64,000 bases of DNA, taken from the IMG/VR virus record IMGVR_UViG_3300042483_000604; one strand, given 5' to 3'. The notes under the pieces were generated by a model. It saw only the letters and a program-made list of their open reading frames with translations, searched no databases and was not told the origin of the DNA. Source of the DNA: a virus. Its lineage: Duplodnaviria; Heunggongvirae; Uroviricota; Caudoviricetes. The position numbers were made by a program, and so were the translations under genes. Positions 471 to 57,157 of the stretch are shown here, piece after piece. Each line of letters begins with the position of its first letter. Within the stretch, counting starts at the first letter, position 1.

Positions 471-522
471 CCTTATATGTTATTTATATTCATTATAAAT
501 TAAAAAAAAGTTAATAAAAAAG

Positions 523-555
523 TTGCTAGTTACAAAGATCGTTCGTATCTTTAGG
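523..555 (+). promoter_or_regulatory. Bacteroidetes-type promoter on the PLUS strand (TTG-N20-TATCTTTAGG)
   Basis: exact match to the recurring motif; only plus-strand copy; no ORF downstream. Confidence 0.55.
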
Positions 556-630
556 TATGTTAGAAGGGAATAAGGGGCCTGGCTTTGAAAGAGAGTCGGA
601 AGAGTAGAAGGGCCGGTACGCCATGTTCGT

Positions 631-700
631 TACTTAAAGCAAAGCTTTAACTTAAAGTGATGCTTTAACTGAATATTTTACTTAAAGGAAAGCTTTAGAT
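631..700. repeat. three tandem palindromic units (TTAAAGC-n3-GCTTTAA and variants)
   Basis: direct reading of the sequence. Confidence 0.55.
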
Positions 701-868
701 AAAAAGGAAAGGGCCCTTGTGAGGCCCCTGCTTGGAAGAGGAGTGCTTCTCCTTCCTGGTGTAGGTCTTCTTAGACTTCTGAATGGTATGCCGTGAGGCT
801 GCCCATCTCTCTTGCATTGTAATCTGAATCTGTTTCATAGGTGCTGAGTATTATTTTTAATATATAGG

Positions 869-5171: not shown

Positions 5172-5989
5172 TAGTTAACCAATGCTGTAGCTAATTTAAA
5201 AAGCTTTTGATTAACTTCTAGATCTTTCTCGAATGATTTAATCTTTCTAACCTTTCTTACTTTAGCACCATTCAATGCTGCTGAATATCCTCCTTGAGTA
5301 ATCTTCTCTTGGATTACATTAAATACTTTCCAGAGATCATTTCCTTTATCAGCATCTCTTACAGGAGTTAGAACGTCTTGAATAGTCTCTTCATCCCACT
5401 CAGCATCGATTCTATTAGTTCTCAATTGCATTGCATCAATTGCTAACTGTCTTTGCTCTGCAGGAGTCAATTCTCTTAACTGCATTTTGTTAAGAATGTC
5501 TACTTTATTAGGAAGATCAGCTACTGCTTGAGATACTACTCCTCTTAATTCTTCGAAGGTATATCCTGTATGTCTGATTCTGAATGCTGAGAATTCTTCA
5601 TCAGCTACTACTAATCCATTTGAGCATACTAATCTGTAGATACCAATTCTGAATTGAAAAGAATTAAATCCATCATGAGAGTTCGTTAAAATGATTCTTG
5701 GGAAAGCATCATCACCATTCTTACCTTTGATCATAAGATCTGGATTTTGAAATGATACCATATGTTTTGAGAAGATTGTATCTTTACCTCTAGATTTTCT
5801 TTGAGAGGCAGTTACTGGCTTCCATCCTAACTTCTCTAAGTCATCGATGATAGTCTCAGTATTAACATGTAAATATTTACCACTTACTTTAGTACTTGTC
5901 GGTGCTGTAGCGAATGCTACTGGTGCTAAAGCTTTTACTTGATCTTTTGAAAGGTAAGAATCTAAACCTGTAGTGAATTTTGATAACAT
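5171..5989 (-). CDS. DUF932-family phage/plasmid protein
   Basis: conserved ILTNSHDGxxxFQ block typical of DUF932. Confidence 0.55.
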   Translation of the reverse strand: MLSKFTTGLDSYLSKDQVKALAPVAFATAPTSTKVSGKYLHVNTETIIDDLEKLGWKPVTASQRKSRGKDTIFSKHMVSFQNPDLMIKGKNGDDAFPRIILTNSHDGFNSFQFRIGIYRLVCSNGLVVADEEFSAFRIRHTGYTFEELRGVVSQAVADLPNKVDILNKMQLRELTPAEQRQLAIDAMQLRTNRIDAEWDEETIQDVLTPVRDADKGNDLWKVFNVIQEKITQGGYSAALNGAKVRKVRKIKSFEKDLEVNQKLFKLATALVN

Positions 5990-52163: not shown

Positions 52164-52212
52164 GTACTACATTGGAGATGAGGGAATTGCTCTCATATTG
52201 GATAAACTTTAG

Positions 52213-52287
52213 TGTCCTATACAGGATTCGAACCTGTGACCTTCTCGTTATGAGCGAGCTGCTCTAACCGGCTGAGCTAAAAGGACA
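52213..52287 (-). tRNA. tRNA-Met/Ile2 (CAT)
   Basis: GGTTCGAATCC T-loop on minus strand, cloverleaf with CTCATAA anticodon loop. Confidence 0.7.
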
Positions 52288-52292
52288 ATTTG

Positions 52293-52366
52293 TAGCGTAG
52301 CGTGGACTCGAACCACCCCCCAGGCTTATGAGACCTAGATGCAACCTTTACACCTTAACGCAATTT
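52293..52366 (-). tRNA. tRNA-like, CAT anticodon loop, poorly paired acceptor/D arms
   Basis: TTCGAGT T-loop and CTCATAA loop, but acceptor has only 4 bp. Confidence 0.3.
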
Positions 52367-52372
52367 ATAAGC

Positions 52373-52444
52373 GGTCTGCACGGGGATCGAACCCGCAATC
52401 TTCGCAGTGACAGTGCGACGTGTTACCAATAACACCTCCAGACC
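52373..52444 (-). tRNA. tRNA-Asp (GTC)
   Basis: cloverleaf, loop CTGTCAC. Confidence 0.75.
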
Positions 52445-52498
52445 AAAATGCCCGTCTGTTCCGAGCTGTCAACCACCAGCTGTTATACAGCTGTATAG

Positions 52499-52570
52499 TG
52501 GAGCTACCGGGATTCGAACCCGGAATAACAGAATGCAAATCTATCGTGATGCCAATTTCACTATAGCCCC
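52499..52570 (-). tRNA. tRNA-Ala (TGC)
   Basis: cloverleaf, G3-U70 identity pair, loop TTTGCAT. Confidence 0.8.
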
Positions 52571-52645
52571 AGTTACTCGTCTTTCCGAGTCGTCAAATCT
52601 AGAAGCTGATTAAGCTATTCCTCCTAATACGAATAAAGAGCTCTG

Positions 52646-52717
52646 TACTGCGTACGGGATTCGAACCCGTGCCTTATCATAGAAAGTGATACGTGTTTAC
52701 CCCTTCACTAACGCAGC
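52646..52717 (-). tRNA. tRNA-Glu (TTC)
   Basis: cloverleaf, loop CTTTCTA. Confidence 0.75.
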
Positions 52718-52723
52718 AATTTG

Positions 52724-52795
52724 AGCGGCTAGAGAGAATCGAACTCTCATCTTTAGATTGGAAGTCTAAAGTAATGACCATTATACGATAGCCGC
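52724..52795 (-). tRNA. tRNA-Gly (TCC)
   Basis: cloverleaf, loop CTTCCAA. Confidence 0.8.
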
Positions 52796-52800
52796 AGTTG

Positions 52801-52874
52801 AGCTTCTGGACGGGATCGAACCGACTCTATTCTGGGTTACAAATCCAGTGCACCACCATTTGTGCGTCAGAAGC
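52801..52874 (-). tRNA. tRNA-Thr (TGT)
   Basis: cloverleaf, loop TTTGTAA closed by an A-C mismatch. Confidence 0.6.
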
Positions 52875-53069
52875 AAATTTAAACTATTAGAGGCTATTGG
52901 GAGTCATCAGTGGCAGCCTTTCACCGTAAACTCGGCTTCCCAATCTTATCTGCACATCTATCTAACTTTTTACGCATAATAGTTTATATTTTAATTAGAG
53001 CCGGGCTATGAATCCGTTCTGCAGGTTAGCCCCTGCTGCTTTAACCTTTATAAGCTAACTCTAATTTTG

Positions 53070-53143
53070 TACCCAAGGAGGGACTCGAACCCTCAATATC
53101 TAGATCCTAAGTCTAGCGTGTCTGCCAATTCCACCACTCGGGC
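53070..53143 (-). tRNA. tRNA with anticodon TAG (Leu-like D arm, short variable arm)
   Basis: GTGGAATTGGCAGAC D-arm like tRNA-Leu, loop CTTAGGA, A73, but only a 5-nt variable region. Confidence 0.5.
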
Positions 53144-53238
53144 ATTTGCCGCATGTGCGGCCACTTATCAATCGGTAGCTCCCTCTCGTTGTCCATCTGT
53201 GGGTGTAACACATTTGGTAGAGGGTCGAACCTTCAATG

Positions 53239-53309
53239 AGGTCGGTGTTGGAATCGAACCAACGTTACAGAGTTTGCAATCCTGCGCCTAACCATTCGGC
53301 CAACCGACC
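53239..53309 (-). tRNA. tRNA-Cys (GCA)
   Basis: cloverleaf, loop TTGCAAA, U73. Confidence 0.65.
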
Positions 53310-53394
53310 AATTTAAACATCTAGCCTGACCTGCCAGACAGTACGTGTCGTCGATCGTGCGTTACGTAGTAGATGTTTTATCTTCTTTCTTATA

Positions 53395-53427
53395 CTTAAA
53401 GATATGAACTTTATTTCTTTCTAGCAA
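53395..53427 (-). promoter_or_regulatory. promoter motif positioned to transcribe the tRNA sub-array 52213-53309
   Basis: sequence. Confidence 0.5.
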
Positions 53428-53436
53428 CTTTTTTTA

Positions 53437-53943
53437 CTAAAAAAATAAAAAAGTTTCCCATTCCTTTGGTATGTGTGTCATAGTTCTCATTAACATTAAA
53501 TAGTGAGGTCTTTTTGGTTCTGGAATTTCCTTACCGTATTCCTCTAATGTTAAATCTGCTTTCTCATGATTACATGGTCTGCAGGCTGTTACTAAATTAT
53601 CCCAAGCATCTTTTCCTCCTTTTGATTGAGGTATAACATGGTCAAGTGTTAGTGTTCTTTGATTTGAACATCCGCAGTAAACACATTCGTAATTATCTCT
53701 TCTATAAATATTCTCTCTTGTTAGAGCTACTTTTTGAATATTATGTTTTACATATGTAAATACTCTAATAATAGAAGGTTTATAAATTGTTAATTCTGGG
53801 TTATACAGATTAAATGTTTCTGGATGTTCAGCTATTACTTCAGCATTACCTTTATAAGAAATCACGAAAGCTCTTTCTGTACTTATAACTGATCTTGCGA
53901 TAAAGCTGGCATCTACTACTAGTGCTTTTTGATACTTACTCAT
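53437..53943 (-). CDS. HNH endonuclease inserted within the tRNA array
   Basis: CVYCG...LDHVIPQSKGG..WDNLVTAC..CNHEK canonical HNH motif. Confidence 0.8.
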   Translation of the reverse strand: MSKYQKALVVDASFIARSVISTERAFVISYKGNAEVIAEHPETFNLYNPELTIYKPSIIRVFTYVKHNIQKVALTRENIYRRDNYECVYCGCSNQRTLTLDHVIPQSKGGKDAWDNLVTACRPCNHEKADLTLEEYGKEIPEPKRPHYLMLMRTMTHIPKEWETFLFF

Positions 53944-53975
53944 GATTTACTTTTTTTAATGAAACAATATATTTG

Positions 53976-54052
53976 CGCGAACCCTAGGAATCGAACCCAG
54001 CCGTCGAGGTTTTGGAGACCTGACCGACACCTTGTCTGTGGAACGCATTTGT
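53976..54052 (-). other. degenerate tRNA-like element
   Basis: TTCGATT T-arm but no acceptable acceptor/anticodon arms. Confidence 0.25.
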
Positions 54053-54118
54053 AGGGTATCGCTTAACCTACCTAGATTAGCCTCATCTACTTAACCCTTA
54101 TGAGGGACGATTTTTTTG

Positions 54119-54189
54119 AACCCATACCTGGACTTGAACCAGGACTGAAACGTTAGAAGCGTTTAGTTCTTCCGATTAAACTATACGGG
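54119..54189 (-). tRNA. tRNA-Arg (TCT)
   Basis: cloverleaf, loop CTTCTAA, TTCAAGT T-loop. Confidence 0.7.
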
Positions 54190-54195
54190 CAGTTG

Positions 54196-54267
54196 AGGTC
54201 TTAGTAGGAGTCGAACCTACGTTCTATCGTTCGTAGCGATAAGTTTTTCCAATTAAACTATAAGACC
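54196..54267 (-). tRNA. tRNA-Arg (ACG)
   Basis: cloverleaf, loop CTACGAA. Confidence 0.75.
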
Positions 54268-54343
54268 AAATAAGAGAGGCTTTATTTAAGCTACTTTCTG
54301 CTATGCAACAGGGTAGGCAATTAGTCCTACATCTCTCTCTTTG

Positions 54344-54423
54344 TACCCCTGACTGGAGTCGAACCAGCAAGCCTGAGCGCCAAGTTTTAAGCCTGGTGTG
54401 TTTACCATTTTCACCACAGGGAT
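54344..54423 (-). tRNA. tRNA-Leu (TAA), class II
   Basis: loop CTTAAAA, 11-nt variable arm, A73. Confidence 0.65.
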
Positions 54424-54430
54424 ATGTTTG

Positions 54431-54504
54431 TGTGAAAGATGGGACTCGAACCCACAATCTCCTGAACCACAATCAGACGCTTTACCAATTCAGCTACAAT
54501 CACC
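54431..54504 (-). tRNA. tRNA-His (GTG)
   Basis: loop TTGTGGT, extra 5' G(-1); acceptor has two U-U mismatches. Confidence 0.55.
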
Positions 54505-54710
54505 ATATTGTACCGACTACAAGTTACGCTCTTGTCTGAGAATACTTATGAGATATTCTCGATCCTAGATCAAGTCGGTAGTTGATAGGGAACCTCTTAC
54601 CCTATCGCTGTACTATCTGATTTTAAAGTGTCTTACCACGGGGCCCCGTTCGTACTTCCTTCTCCTGCATTCCTTAGATGCGTTGTGAGGACGGTGAGGA
54701 GGTTTTTTTG

Positions 54711-54793
54711 AGGAAAGCAGAGGTATCGAACCCCATGCCCGAAGGCACGATACGCTTAGCAAGCGGTCTCAACTCCTAGTTGATTTACTTTCC
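54711..54793 (-). tRNA. tRNA-Ser (GCT), class II
   Basis: loop TTGCTAA, long variable-arm hairpin with UUCG loop; T-stem imperfect. Confidence 0.45.
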
Positions 54794-54798
54794 CTTTG

Positions 54799-54872
54799 TA
54801 GGTAATATAGGAATCGAACCTATAACCTCTCACGTATCAGGCGAGTGCTCTAACCAATTGAGCTAATTACCT
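54799..54872 (-). tRNA. tRNA-Ile (GAT)
   Basis: clean cloverleaf, loop CTGATAC. Confidence 0.8.
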
Positions 54873-54879
54873 ATTTTTG

Positions 54880-54955
54880 TGCTCATAGCTGGAATCGAAC
54901 CAACCTCGATAAGTCACTTACTCCAACCAACTGCTACTTGTTACGTACCTTGAGC
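54880..54955 (-). tRNA. tRNA, anticodon unresolved
   Basis: good T-arm and acceptor; D/anticodon arms could not be folded by eye. Confidence 0.4.
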
Positions 54956-55032
54956 TTTTACGATTGACCGTCACGTTATCCCACTTCAGGTTGGGGAGCT
55001 ACCACACTACCTGTTATACGAGCATTTAATTG

Positions 55033-55104
55033 CGGGCCTGGGAGGAATCGAACCTCCATAAGATGATTAACAGTCATCCGTAATAACCTTTATACGACAA
55101 ACCC
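55033..55104 (-). tRNA. tRNA-Asn (GTT)
   Basis: cloverleaf, perfect GATGA/TCATC anticodon stem, loop CTGTTAA. Confidence 0.8.
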
Positions 55105-55109
55105 GGTTG

Positions 55110-55182
55110 TGGACCCTACAGGAATCGAACCTGTTCCTCTAGTTCTTCAGACTAGCGTACGCACCAGCTATACAAAAGGTCC
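55110..55182 (-). tRNA. tRNA-Phe (GAA)
   Basis: cloverleaf, loop CTGAAGA. Confidence 0.8.
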
Positions 55183-55187
55183 AATTG

Positions 55188-55270
55188 TGGGATACTGTGG
55201 AATCGAACCACACGCTTCTTACAGCAACGATTTTACAGACCGCTTATCACACCAGTGACTGAAGCATCCC
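55188..55270 (-). tRNA. tRNA-Tyr (GTA), class II
   Basis: loop CTGTAAA, long variable arm. Confidence 0.7.
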
Positions 55271-55276
55271 AATTTG

Positions 55277-55348
55277 ATCATTCTACAGGAATCGAACCTG
55301 CTTCTCCACCCTCCACGGGCAGCGTAGTCACCAATCTACCAAGAACGA
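55277..55348 (-). tRNA. tRNA, atypical anticodon loop CGTGGAG (TGG-like, lacks U33)
   Basis: good acceptor, D and T arms. Confidence 0.4.
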
Positions 55349-55447
55349 AACTATAACAAGCTTTCATCGGCAAATTACTAACTCATAATAGACTCCATAT
55401 AGTCTTGAAAATACTTGCCGGTATTTTACTTGCTACCCAGAATTTTG

Positions 55448-55518
55448 TACCTCGTGATAGAATCGAACTATCGCCCTTTGCATGTAAAACAAATACGCTA
55501 CCATTACGCCAACGAGGC
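55448..55518 (-). tRNA. tRNA-Val (TAC)
   Basis: cloverleaf, loop TTTACAT. Confidence 0.75.
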
Positions 55519-55575
55519 AAATCTAATTCTACGCTTCGGTCTAAAAGCCCTTCTATGAATTAGTAACAGTCTTCT
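55519..55575 (-). repeat. conserved tRNA 5'-leader, copy 1 (upstream of tRNA-Val)
   Basis: CAAATCTAATTCTACGCTTCG...CTTCTATGAATTAGTAACAGTCT shared with 55653-55712. Confidence 0.5.
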
Positions 55576-55579
55576 TTTG

Positions 55580-55652
55580 TACCCCCGGCTGGCCTCGAAC
55601 CAGCTACCCCCGAGTTAAAAGCCCGGTGCCCGTCCACATGAGCTTCGAAGGC
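55580..55652 (-). tRNA. tRNA-Lys (TTT)
   Basis: cloverleaf, loop CTTTTAA, perfect T-stem. Confidence 0.7.
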
Positions 55653-55712
55653 AAATCTAATTCTACGCTTCGAGGACTTACTCGCGTGGTCTTCTATGAA
55701 TTAGTAACAGTC
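55653..55712 (-). repeat. conserved tRNA 5'-leader, copy 2 (upstream of tRNA-Lys)
   Basis: direct repeat of 55519-55575. Confidence 0.5.
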
Positions 55713-55720
55713 TCTTCTCG

Positions 55721-55796
55721 TCTGGTAGGCAGGATTCGAACCTGCGTGCTCTAGCGTCCAAGGCCAGCGAGATAAACCGGACTCCTCTACTACCAG
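55721..55796 (-). tRNA. tRNA-Pro (TGG)
   Basis: cloverleaf, loop CTTGGAC. Confidence 0.75.
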
Positions 55797-56011
55797 TGGT
55801 GAAGGGATTATTTTTTTAAAGTAGAATTCGCCCATCTCAAAACTACTGTAATTTCCGTAAGCAAAGCCATCGGGCTGATTCCCTGTACTCATGTCTTGCA
55901 TCGTTTTCTCCATATGGATTTCTCCACTACTTACTGATAATGCTTTCTTTACTAACCGTCCTACTTACTGATCAAGTGTTGGGATAGGCTTTCATTACTT
56001 ACAATTATTTG

Positions 56012-56083
56012 TTGGCTTACTAGGATTCGAACCTAGACTAAAACAGTCAAAGTGTTTTGTGCTAACCGTTACACTATAAGCCA
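56012..56083 (-). tRNA. tRNA-Gln (TTG)
   Basis: cloverleaf, AAACA/TGTTT stem, loop CTTTGAC. Confidence 0.8.
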
Positions 56084-56089
56084 ATATTG

Positions 56090-56173
56090 AGGAAGACGTG
56101 GGACTCGAACCCACAACAGTATTACCTGCTACCACTTTTCAAGAGTGGCTCCTGATCCAGCCGGATGCCTTCC
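56090..56173 (-). tRNA. tRNA-Ser (TGA), class II
   Basis: CCACT/AGTGG stem, loop CTTGAAA, long variable arm. Confidence 0.7.
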
Positions 56174-56221
56174 CTATGCTTTATCCAATATGTCAATGAA
56201 CTCTTATTCTTTATTTCTGTA

Positions 56222-56253
56222 CCTAAAGATACGATTTTTTTTTCTTTCTAGCA
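56222..56253 (-). promoter_or_regulatory. promoter motif positioned to transcribe the tRNA sub-array ending at 56173
   Basis: sequence. Confidence 0.5.
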
Positions 56254-56270
56254 ACTTTTTTTTAATAAAA

Positions 56271-56305
56271 AACCCGAATCTTTTTTTGATCCGGGTACCT
56301 TACTT
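56271..56305 (-). terminator. hairpin plus U-run upstream of the promoter at 56222
   Basis: ACCCGGATC-A7-GATTCGGGT then U6 on the minus strand. Confidence 0.35.
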
Positions 56306-56332
56306 ATAATATGTATTTTATACTATATCATA

Positions 56333-56476
56333 TCATACCCCGGTACCTCCTTGTTTCGGTTCGTTATTATATCCAGCAAAGCCTAAAATGACATCCCCAC
56401 ATAACGAATCCGACCACGTATTCAATGCTCTTGTCGCTGTGCTAAGTTGTTGATGTATGTTTTGAATTGCTTTCAT
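56333..56476 (-). CDS. small hypothetical protein (47 aa)
   Basis: ORF preceded by tandem promoter motifs 56496-56527 and 56565-56596. Confidence 0.25.
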   Translation of the reverse strand: MKAIQNIHQQLSTATRALNTWSDSLCGDVILGFAGYNNEPKQGGTGV

Positions 56477-56495
56477 TTTATTTGCTTTCTATATA

Positions 56496-56527
56496 TAAAT
56501 ATATGAACTTTTCCATTCCAGTCCAAC
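56496..56527 (-). promoter_or_regulatory. promoter motif (tandem copy 1)
   Basis: sequence. Confidence 0.4.
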
Positions 56528-56564
56528 TATATTTTAATTTTTTTTCTTTGTGTTTTTATATATT

Positions 56565-56596
56565 ATAAATATACGAACTTTTATTTTATAAAACAA
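56565..56596 (-). promoter_or_regulatory. promoter motif (tandem copy 2)
   Basis: sequence. Confidence 0.4.
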
Positions 56597-56616
56597 CTAC
56601 TGTTCTTTGGATTAAT

Positions 56617-56928
56617 TTATCCGTTTATTAATTTTTTTTTCTTAACTGGCTCACATCCATCATTGTTAATTGACGTAAGTTTTTGTTCTAATTTGTCTAC
56701 TCTGGAGTCTGTATAGGAAATACAGTCTGAGTGTAGTTTGTTTACTCGATCAACTTCCTGATCAATTCTACGATTTACTAATTCATCGTTTCTAGAAATC
56801 CAGTTCTGTATTTCAGTTAACTCTTTTTCTTGCTTTGCTACTTTGCTTGCTGTTCTAAACGCTACCACAACCCCCCATGCAAGGAGAGCTATACCAACCC
56901 CTAAAACAAATGCTAAAATTTGTTCCAT
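56617..56928 (-). CDS. membrane-anchored coiled-coil protein
   Basis: N-terminal TM helix. Confidence 0.4.
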   Translation of the reverse strand: MEQILAFVLGVGIALLAWGVVVAFRTASKVAKQEKELTEIQNWISRNDELVNRRIDQEVDRVNKLHSDCISYTDSRVDKLEQKLTSINNDGCEPVKKKKLING

Positions 56929-56969
56929 AATTTATAATTTTTATTTCAAAGAACAGTAGTTTAATTTTG

Positions 56970-57066
56970 TAGTCAGGACAGGATTCGAACCTGCTCCAGC
57001 TTTGCCATAAATAGTATATTTCAACTAAACCTTGGGGAGGTGCCACCAACCAATGGTCTCCTGACT
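56970..57066 (-). tRNA. atypically long (97 nt) tRNA-like gene, possible insertion/intron
   Basis: canonical T-arm and 7-bp acceptor pairing, but ~25 extra nt between D and T regions. Confidence 0.35.
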
Positions 57067-57071
57067 GTTTG

Positions 57072-57157
57072 GAATCGGTGAGGGATTCGAACCCTCATCC
57101 CGCTTAGAAGCGGTGTTACCCTCTGTCGGTATTCATTCCCGATTACACCAACCGATT
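57072..57157 (-). tRNA. class II tRNA (Leu/Ser-like), anticodon unresolved
   Basis: perfect GAGGG/CCCTC T-arm, 7-bp acceptor, variable-arm hairpin CCGC-TTCTAA-GCGG. Confidence 0.5.

Follow-up and report, generated by a model that had tools for sequence, protein, structure and literature searches.

Small RNAs of several described kinds resemble, in one respect or another, the locus reported here. The put RNA of phage HK022 is a cis-acting antiterminator that binds RNA polymerase, the Bacillus pairs bsrG/SR4 and txpA/RatA are convergent type I toxin-antitoxin systems with a small membrane toxin, ToxI-type (type III) antitoxins are ~36-nucleotide (nt) pseudoknot repeats upstream of a co-directional toxin gene (a phage pseudo-ToxI exists), and known small ribozymes are common in phage DNA. 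To our knowledge, very few small RNAs have been described from Bacteroidota phages, and none from the group of Flavobacterium phage vB_FspM_immuto (immuto). We analysed a 64,000-nt stretch of DNA from a Caudoviricetes virus (IMG/VR virus record IMGVR_UViG_3300042483_000604), referred to in full as the window, and found on its plus strand, at 523-729, what is very probably a real, independently transcribed, non-coding RNA gene, the conserved core of which, judged from sequence comparison, belongs to a large uncatalogued family of phage RNAs.

Like stand-alone small RNAs of phages and bacteria, the locus has its own promoter and no conserved open reading frame (ORF), sets a covarying hairpin beside a conserved unpaired segment, is followed in many relatives by a U-run past the 3′ helix, and occurs as paralogous copies in one genome. 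Unlike them, its motif includes a segment without variation even between very different phages, whereas a seed directed against phage- or strain-specific mRNAs would not usually be so constant; a complementary site was not found in the window, and the motif is not in Rfam. A phage small RNA gene is a known kind of object; this family is apparently new, with no Rfam model, no literature match and no annotation in immuto. Fremin et al. 2023 (PMC10690425) reported 10,006 candidate structured RNAs from viral metagenomes, which resemble the present motif in being intergenic, covarying and located in IMG/VR phage contigs, and the motif may be among these unnamed candidates.

A plus-strand promoter and a conserved core

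Among cultured phages, only immuto matched positions 1-2938 of the window, with ~83% identity across 59% of the query; immuto is an Immutovirus of 160 kb from the Baltic Sea. The genes around the RNA locus are small and all on the minus strand, each behind a Bacteroidetes-like promoter, TTG-N20-TA(T/A)(C/A)TTTAGG. With at most one mismatch to TTG-N20-TATCTTTAGG, the 64 kb contain 16 copies where chance predicts 0.27, and 15 of the 16 are minus-strand copies. The initial annotation had proposed that the only plus-strand copy drives an ORF-free, GC-richer, hairpin-dense segment at 500-820. This copy, TTG-N20-TATCTTTAGG at 523-555, is indeed exact, and it stands alone on the plus strand under strict and looser patterns (1 plus versus 15-16 minus copies; for TTG-N18-22-TAnnTTTARG, 1 plus versus 16 minus). 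It comprises a TTG box (-33-like), 20 nt and TATCTTTAGG (a Bacteroidetes-type -7 box). The divergent minus-strand promoter named in the same annotation was located at 437-469; it is of the same phage type with one mismatch to TTG-N20-TATCTTTAGG, drives a 44-amino-acid (aa) ORF at 278-412, and is kept in immuto and other loci of class A, the immuto-like group of homologues.

In homologues both promoter boxes are kept and the spacer sequence between them is variable. In class A contigs each paralogue is preceded, at ~20 nt, by a box of its own. A TAnnTTTR box no more than 70 nt upstream is present in 28 of the 33 class A copies and in 15 of 30 from a second group, the 'UCCA' subclass. Upstream, the TTG box is abutted on the plus strand by an A-tract repeat, two copies of TTAAAAAAAAG at 500-524 (TRF: period 12, 2.2 copies); the A-rich stretch is kept across class A loci and resembles an UP element, whose role it possibly plays. 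From the known spacing between Bacteroidetes TAnnTTTG boxes and their transcription starts, we infer a start at about 558-562. The 5′ leader (556-573, plus strand) is kept only in close relatives and measures 0-10 nt in other subclasses.

The segment behind this promoter has the composition and folding that had been claimed for it. Positions 556-730 have a GC fraction of 0.417 versus a window mean of 0.342 (standard deviation 0.05), placing them in the top 7.4% of 175-nt windows, and the core at 574-625 reaches 0.60. The plus strand of 556-730 folds with -54.5 kcal/mol (z = -3.5, 1 of 200 shuffles as good), and the minus strand folds less well (z = -2.2).

Conservation singles out a much smaller part of this segment. 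Between the window and immuto, 520-700 is ~99% identical versus 75-80% for flanking coding DNA, and the two are nearly identical from the promoter to ~700 save for one 18-nt indel; over 37 loci, the conservation profile peaks at 575-614. The core motif (574-629, plus strand) consists of GGGG, a hairpin termed P2 (579-586 paired with 592-599, loop GAAAG), the near-invariant GGAAGAGUAGA(C/A) at 598-609, the class A tail GGGCCGGUAC, then GCCAUGUUCG, and a 3′ helix. The minimal form of the family is ~55 nt long: a variable P2, the near-invariant and single-strand-like GGAAGAGUAGAC that follows it, and a short 3′ helix. A covariance model, R1, built from 72 sequences, recovered a single copy in the window (574-625, 56.6 bits, E = 1e-21) and also detected diverged second and third copies in other contigs. 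The proposal of a promoter-driven non-coding RNA is partly supported, by the promoter, the conservation of the core, its strand-specific hairpin, its lack of a conserved ORF and its place in a large family of promoter-proximal motifs in other phages; the part that is conserved, 574-629, had not been singled out.

Covariation and structure of the core

The initial annotation had suggested homologous regions as a place to look for covariation, and P2 has it in the form of compensatory changes. Diverged paralogues carry double changes in P2 (C-G to U-A, G-C to A-U, A-U to G-C or U.G) with AAGAGUAGAC fixed, and the length of P2 also changes among them, by non-multiples of 3. In an alignment fitted to the covariance model, on which the figures for covariation rest, both-sided changes occur at 5 of 8 pairs, the P2 covariation score is 0.168 versus 0.131 in shuffles (0/500 as high), and P2 cells are paired in 87% of cases versus 20-45% with the partner slid; an earlier MAFFT alignment gave the same picture of P2, more weakly. 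The U.G pair 580/598 is invariant and would be an A.C mismatch on the opposite strand, and pair 582/596 is split about evenly between A-U and G.U. Such G.U pairs exist only as plus-strand RNA; they therefore fit the orientation of the promoter and disfavour a purely DNA-level element.

For the 3′ helix there are two candidates, P3 (604-606 with 617-619) and P3x (602-606 with 624-628). P3, of 3-4 bp (GUAG/CUAC), is paired in 95-98% of sequences of class B, the other large group of homologues, and in 74% of class A; P3x, pairing GAGUA with tail positions 15-19, is paired in 93% of class A and 67-81% of class B. At position 609 the window has A (GUAGAA), and the other collected members have C (GUAGAC), save one with U (L040b). 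A609 shifts the minimum-free-energy fold of the core to a helix between the P2 5′ strand and GGGCCGG, which was rejected as a conserved class A fold on finding it lost in GGUCCGG and GGAGCAG variants.

Further pairings were tried and rejected. For a closing helix P1, in which the 5′ flank would pair with the 3′ tail, duplex energies are no better than permuted ones (z = -1.0 in class A, -0.5 in class B), and the 3′ tail is unchanged where the leader changes, which also counts against P1. In an extended single hairpin, UAGNG-U-CGGA / UCCG-NC-CUA, predicted by RNAfold for some members, the UCCA G-to-A change is mostly uncompensated and UAG varies alone. Pairing of the P2 loop with the tail (AAAUA/UAUUU) is inconsistent between tail types, and a pseudoknot of the 5′ G-run with the P3 loop has no consistent partner. 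No pseudoknot or third helix was found for the core.

Coding potential of the core was likewise rejected: its 21-aa plus-strand and 32-aa minus-strand ORFs are not conserved, P2 indels are non-multiples of 3, and the ATG is lost elsewhere. The 32-aa frame is annotated in immuto as a 'hypothetical protein', immuto26A_125 (MW353175; 4432-4530 of that sequence, L001, equivalent to window 526-624, minus strand), lying over the promoter and core. Its start codon is missing in other class A loci, and it is probably not a gene. Across 556-694 there is no conserved ORF on either strand. The earlier description of the segment as ORF-free holds nominally and fails at 695-838, where a 47-aa minus-strand ORF (ORF47) is conserved as a protein in 20 related loci; a mechanically called 64-aa minus-strand ORF (771-965) also extends into 771-800. 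A conserved small protein had been set against conserved structure as what homologues might show; they show both, structure at 574-629 and protein at 695-838.

Distribution of the family

Searching for exact matches to pieces of 582-629 gave the first homologues, ten immuto-like contigs. The 15-mer GTCGGAAGAGTAGAC, used next, matched 84 IMG/VR stretches, ~60 of them with longer context including an upstream CCTGR, and the 15-mer with its CCTGR context was found in at least 120 metagenome contigs, mostly from lake and marine samples. The family totals at least 180 uncultured aquatic phage contigs. The longer context of the ~60 IMG/VR stretches reads (G)GCCUG(A/G)C, a variable hairpin, GUCGG, AAGAGUAGAC and UCC(G/A)NCCUAC, with GGGCCGGUAC in place of the last block in class A. 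Among genomes of 185,579 bacterial and archaeal species (one each), three stretches carry the motif, of which one, within coding DNA, matches by chance and the others resemble phage contigs binned with metagenome-assembled genomes; among 50,697 cultured phage records, the motif occurs only in immuto Flavobacterium phages. A solitary CRISPR repeat or RNA anti-CRISPR was rejected, the pattern being present in 3 of the 185,579 species genomes and none of these being an array; a CRISPR-repeat mimic is disfavoured because the hairpin sequence varies.

Searches of Rfam 15 gave nothing to E 10 at the window locus and nothing to E 1 in nine other loci. The best Rfam overlaps of 556-730 lay on the minus strand, with E > 2, and stayed below their gathering scores: SprD reached 17 bits against a gathering score of 100, and BjrC68 14 bits against one of 39. 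Over the whole window only tRNAs reached gathering scores, the models searched including ribozymes, riboswitches, 6S, signal recognition particle (SRP) RNA, 5S, transfer-messenger RNA (tmRNA), Flavo-1, IMES and further motifs from metagenomes, and ARAGORN called no tRNA or tmRNA at 500-840. By eye, the core recalls 5S rRNA, SRP domain IV, the tmRNA 5′ end, the sarcin-ricin loop, 16S h43 and the Cas12a repeat; these likenesses are unsupported by Rfam models and were dismissed, because short word matches are expected by chance. A full-text literature search returned no paper with the motif sequence, and no discussion of RNAs was found in the literature on immuto.

Gene layout in related phages

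In class A (~30 instances) the order is promoter, a leader of 15-20 nt, core, 0 to more than 6 hairpin modules, a GC-rich hairpin and convergent ORF47, the modules being 18-nt ACUUAAAG-N-CUUUA units or a GUAGU...ACUAC hairpin. In some class A contigs the core occurs twice in tandem, each time behind a promoter of its own.

The 'UCCA' subclass (for example L098, L113, L125, L184 and L191) is more compact. A TAnnTTTG box lies 5-15 nt upstream of the motif, a U-run begins a few nt past the 3′ helix (T4+ within 20 nt in 20 of 30 copies), and each contig has 2-3 copies, with the motif opposite to both neighbouring genes. Given this promoter, U-run and orientation, the layout is that of a ~55-nt stand-alone RNA gene. 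The arrangement with a divergent gene on the left and a convergent gene on the right is common to this subclass and the window.

In class B main, the largest subclass (contigs of ~50-70 kb), the motif is set among small co-directional genes, and an extended -10-like element usually precedes it by 5-8 nt. Class B contigs such as L046, L018, L024 and L144 carry the 10-mer TGCTATACAC on either side of the motif, its reverse complement GTGTATAGCA occurring in other subgroups, and long near-perfect hairpins (GTGTGACGTTAGCC...GGCTAATGTCACAC) also flank the motif in class B; these elements may serve as promoters or operators and as sites of RNase III-type processing. Beside the motif, often to its left and right alike, 79 of 104 class B loci (e.g. 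L057, L118 and L033) encode fam1, a family of 75-125-aa proteins (core KRFVVRKSLIGKNQVI..YNHD.VY..MPCF.KY.SY) without a match in Pfam, PHROG or cultured phages. As a partner of the motif fam1 was rejected, because it is absent from the window; it marks the lineage, not the function. One class B contig (L092, 1595-3136, minus strand) encodes a GroEL-type chaperonin whose closest cultured-phage match is the GroEL of immuto (41% identity), a likeness that is the only host hint for class B.

Downstream hairpins, a convergent small gene and iterons

The core is followed on the plus strand, at 630-700, by three 18-nt AU-rich hairpin units, (A)CUUAAAG-N3-5-CUUUA(A), with hairpins at 634-650, 652-668 and 682-698. 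This stretch folds significantly (z = -2.9, 0/200 shuffles as good). Homologues have 0 to more than 6 units; immuto has one extra, and among other loci L006 has none and L007 many. Because copy number differs between close relatives, the modules are accessory to the core. ToxI shares with them tandem short RNA repeats of a copy number that varies between related phages; unlike ToxI, the units here are simple 18-nt hairpins with no co-directional gene after them, and they are absent in most family members.

Of 34 class A instances, 31 have a GC-rich hairpin beyond the core. It is mostly the one found in the window at 709-729, common to the two convergent units and with compensatory stem changes, and on the plus strand a U-run (at least 5 T in 9 nt) follows it in 20 of 31. 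On the minus strand it was called as a terminator (729-709, tail TCCTTTTTAT), and it is probably a shared bidirectional terminator. This is the hairpin GGGCC-CTTGTGA-GGCCC that had been placed at ~704-722; its actual place is 711-727, or 709-729 with flanking pairs. The other hairpin that had been cited, GGAAGAG...CUCCUUCC (734-756, plus strand), is a lineage-specific insertion within the 47-aa gene, absent from immuto and most homologues, with z = -0.85. Neither serves as the evidence for an RNA for which they were invoked, as both sit within the conserved minus-strand gene and outside the conserved RNA.

That gene, ORF47 (695-838, minus strand; MKQIQITMQERWAAS...), encodes a very basic protein of 47 aa and is convergent with the RNA, its last codons holding the GC hairpin. 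Its sequence includes MKQIQITMQERWAASRH...KSKKTYTRKEKH; in immuto it reads MKTIQVTLQERWAAS... versus MKQIQITMQERWAAS... in the window and continues into the hairpin-repeat region. Differences between the window and immuto at 740-838 follow a protein pattern, so that the right third of the segment noted originally is a protein gene on the opposite strand. ORF47 (47-50 aa, basic) was found in 20 related loci with protein-like substitutions and always convergent with the RNA, and by this pattern of substitution it is a real gene. It is rich in K, R, Q and S, lacks a hydrophobic stretch, and has no Pfam or PHROG match. The minus-strand U-run stops ~2 nt ahead of the ORF47 stop codon, and termination at the GC hairpin on this strand could give ORF47 mRNAs without a stop codon.

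Farther along, at least 12 AACGGGT(A/C) iterons in two clusters (1165-1295 and 1565-1633) flank an ORF-poor, pyrimidine-rich and AT-rich stretch (spacer 1300-1560). The same iterons come after the RNA/ORF47 module in two other loci (L005 and L006). The iteron region lies ~450 bp past the RNA gene, on the side towards which the gene is transcribed, and is probably an origin of replication.

Possible functions of the RNA

That the locus is a non-coding RNA gene follows from its own conserved promoter, nucleotide conservation above that of its neighbours, strand-specific covariation, the lack of a conserved ORF and the stand-alone layout in relatives. What such an RNA does is less certain. We favour, with a probability of about 0.5, the reading that 523-729 is an independent small-RNA gene whose product acts in trans through the invariant segment, because minimal promoter-to-U-run units occur without downstream targets, paralogous copies exist, and a variable helix stands beside an invariant unpaired stretch. 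The last is the pattern of seed-bearing or protein-binding small RNAs. The promoter at 523-555, of an early type resembling those of host sigma-A, would start the RNA near 560; the transcript would comprise the ~55-nt core at 574-629 and then the three AU-rich modules at 630-700, and would end at or just past the GC hairpin at 709-729, giving a length of ~150-170 nt. Its hairpins would display the invariant GGAAGAGUAGAC for binding by a partner that is itself highly conserved, be it a protein of host or phage or an RNA of complementary sequence, and the small RNA would thereby sequester or regulate this partner in trans early in infection. The modules of the immuto lineage would be accessory, providing stability or additional binding sites.

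Several observations weigh against this reading. The RNA's start, its 3′ end and its stability are predictions. On the plus strand of the window the GC hairpin is followed by only 2 T in the next 9 nt; with the U-run missing there, one may doubt that plus-strand transcription terminates at 709-729, and the RNA may extend into ORF47 as antisense. No site complementary to the RNA was found in the 64-kb window. P3 and P3x cannot form together, and double compensatory changes are found in neither. The core alone is thermodynamically ordinary (z = +0.27), so that its significance rests on conservation. The invariance of the 15-mer is in part ascertainment, because homologues were fished with exactly GTCGGAAGAGTAGAC; in a single small check with the 5′ part only (GGCCTGRCTTTGAAA), the exact 15-mer was present in 29 of 31 true members, and the two variants (GUAGAC to GUGGAC, GUCGG to GUUGG) keep the proposed pairs as G.U. 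Finally, the motif in class B main is co-directional with its neighbours and mostly without an obvious terminator, which a cis-acting or processed element would fit too.

The cis-acting alternative takes two forms, a put-like antitermination RNA that modifies RNA polymerase or an origin-directed transcript that reads into 1165-1633 and activates or primes replication, and we consider it unlikely. It would account for the motif lying always immediately downstream of a promoter, for the position of the class B motif early in a co-directional small-gene operon with hairpins downstream, for the weak plus-strand terminator in the window, and for the at least 12 AACGGGT iterons ahead of the transcript, with the same synteny in L005 and L006. 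Like put RNA, moreover, the motif is a short two-hairpin RNA just past early promoters. Unlike put, however, the motif in the window and in the 'UCCA' subclass has no co-directional genes next to it, and the feature expected of put, co-directional genes to read through, is confined to class B main; the window has no plus-strand gene beyond the motif. For the 'UCCA' subclass, with a U-run a few nt on and then a convergent gene, there is nothing to antiterminate, and a proper plus-strand U-run follows the GC hairpin in 20 of 31 class A loci. On its way to the iterons, whose identity as an origin is itself an assignment from sequence, an origin-directed transcript would need to pass head-on through two minus-strand genes and their promoter. 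The motif also shows no likeness to put RNA or to other families in Rfam. Less probable again is that the RNA serves as a 3′-overlapping antisense partner of ORF47 (type I toxin-antitoxin-like or cis-antisense) controlling the stability or translation of its mRNA, or that the basic protein binds the RNA. As in the Bacillus type I pairs, an RNA gene and the gene of a small protein converge, their 3′ ends overlapping or shared and their terminator bidirectional; the two are convergent in 20 loci (21 ORF copies) of ~30 genuine class A instances, where ORF47 is kept as part of one module with the RNA and the outer genes differ, the shared GC hairpin lies in the last ORF47 codons, the immuto ORF enters the hairpin repeats, and the window lineage lacks the plus-strand U-run after the hairpin. 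Yet ORF47 is restricted to class A and the core occurs in more than 120 loci without it, so that ORF47 cannot explain the conserved core; its protein is hydrophilic and basic, unlike a small hydrophobic toxin or membrane peptide, and the U-runs on both strands in most class A loci leave an overlap of only ~20-30 nt.

A new self-cleaving ribozyme, or a processing element that cuts or marks phage transcripts, would suit a motif of ~50 nt with two helices and 10-15 near-invariant unpaired nucleotides that occurs in several copies per phage contig and is intergenic in class B operons, and it would not be out of place given how common such ribozymes are in phages. We nevertheless regard it as improbable: no Rfam ribozyme family matches, no pseudoknot or third helix was found, and where promoters are recognisable the transcript starts with the motif itself or a few nt ahead, and a U-run comes right behind the motif, so that there is little to cleave off. 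The least probable account is that core and TTAAAG palindromes are protein sites in DNA (operator, replication or partition) and the RNA is functionless. Here GCTTTAACTTAAAGC is a DNA palindrome that recurs every 18 bp, the 15-mer contains GTC...GAC, and the module lies beside divergent promoters and near iterons; against this, P2 is kept through G.U pairs and one-sided transitions that pair only as plus-strand RNA, its sequence and length vary freely with pairing kept, and each copy has its own correctly oriented promoter.

Any partner of the RNA should be worth finding. The motif is short, extremely conserved, and absent from Rfam and nearly all bacterial genomes, and its extreme conservation in phages that share neither neighbouring genes nor promoter type therefore points to a strongly constrained interaction. 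A bolder and tentative suggestion, which we hold to be a good deal short of probable, is that a globally distributed family, marine and freshwater, in at least three phage lineages with different promoter types, uses GGAAGAGUAGAC to engage a universally conserved host machine or defence system, as a takeover or anti-defence RNA, or is a new catalytic RNA, rather than a lineage-specific riboregulator. One cultured system, Flavobacterium sp. LMO8 with immuto, has the motif and makes direct testing possible.

Neighbouring genes and annotation

For the public annotation of immuto, the comparison amounts to a correction: immuto26A_125 is probably spurious, and the 47-aa basic protein is real. A gene of the DUF932 family adjoins the motif, convergent or just downstream, in L098 (3672-4574), L184 (4581-5618), L191 (1904-2812) and L019 (2620-3495), four contigs of the 'UCCA' subclass; in the window (5174-5989, minus strand) and in immuto it is 3-4.5 kb from the motif, and its adjacency may be only shared early-region synteny. 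At the far end of the window (~52-57 kb), ARAGORN identified 23 tRNA genes at 52212-57157, all on the minus strand and covering most amino acids.

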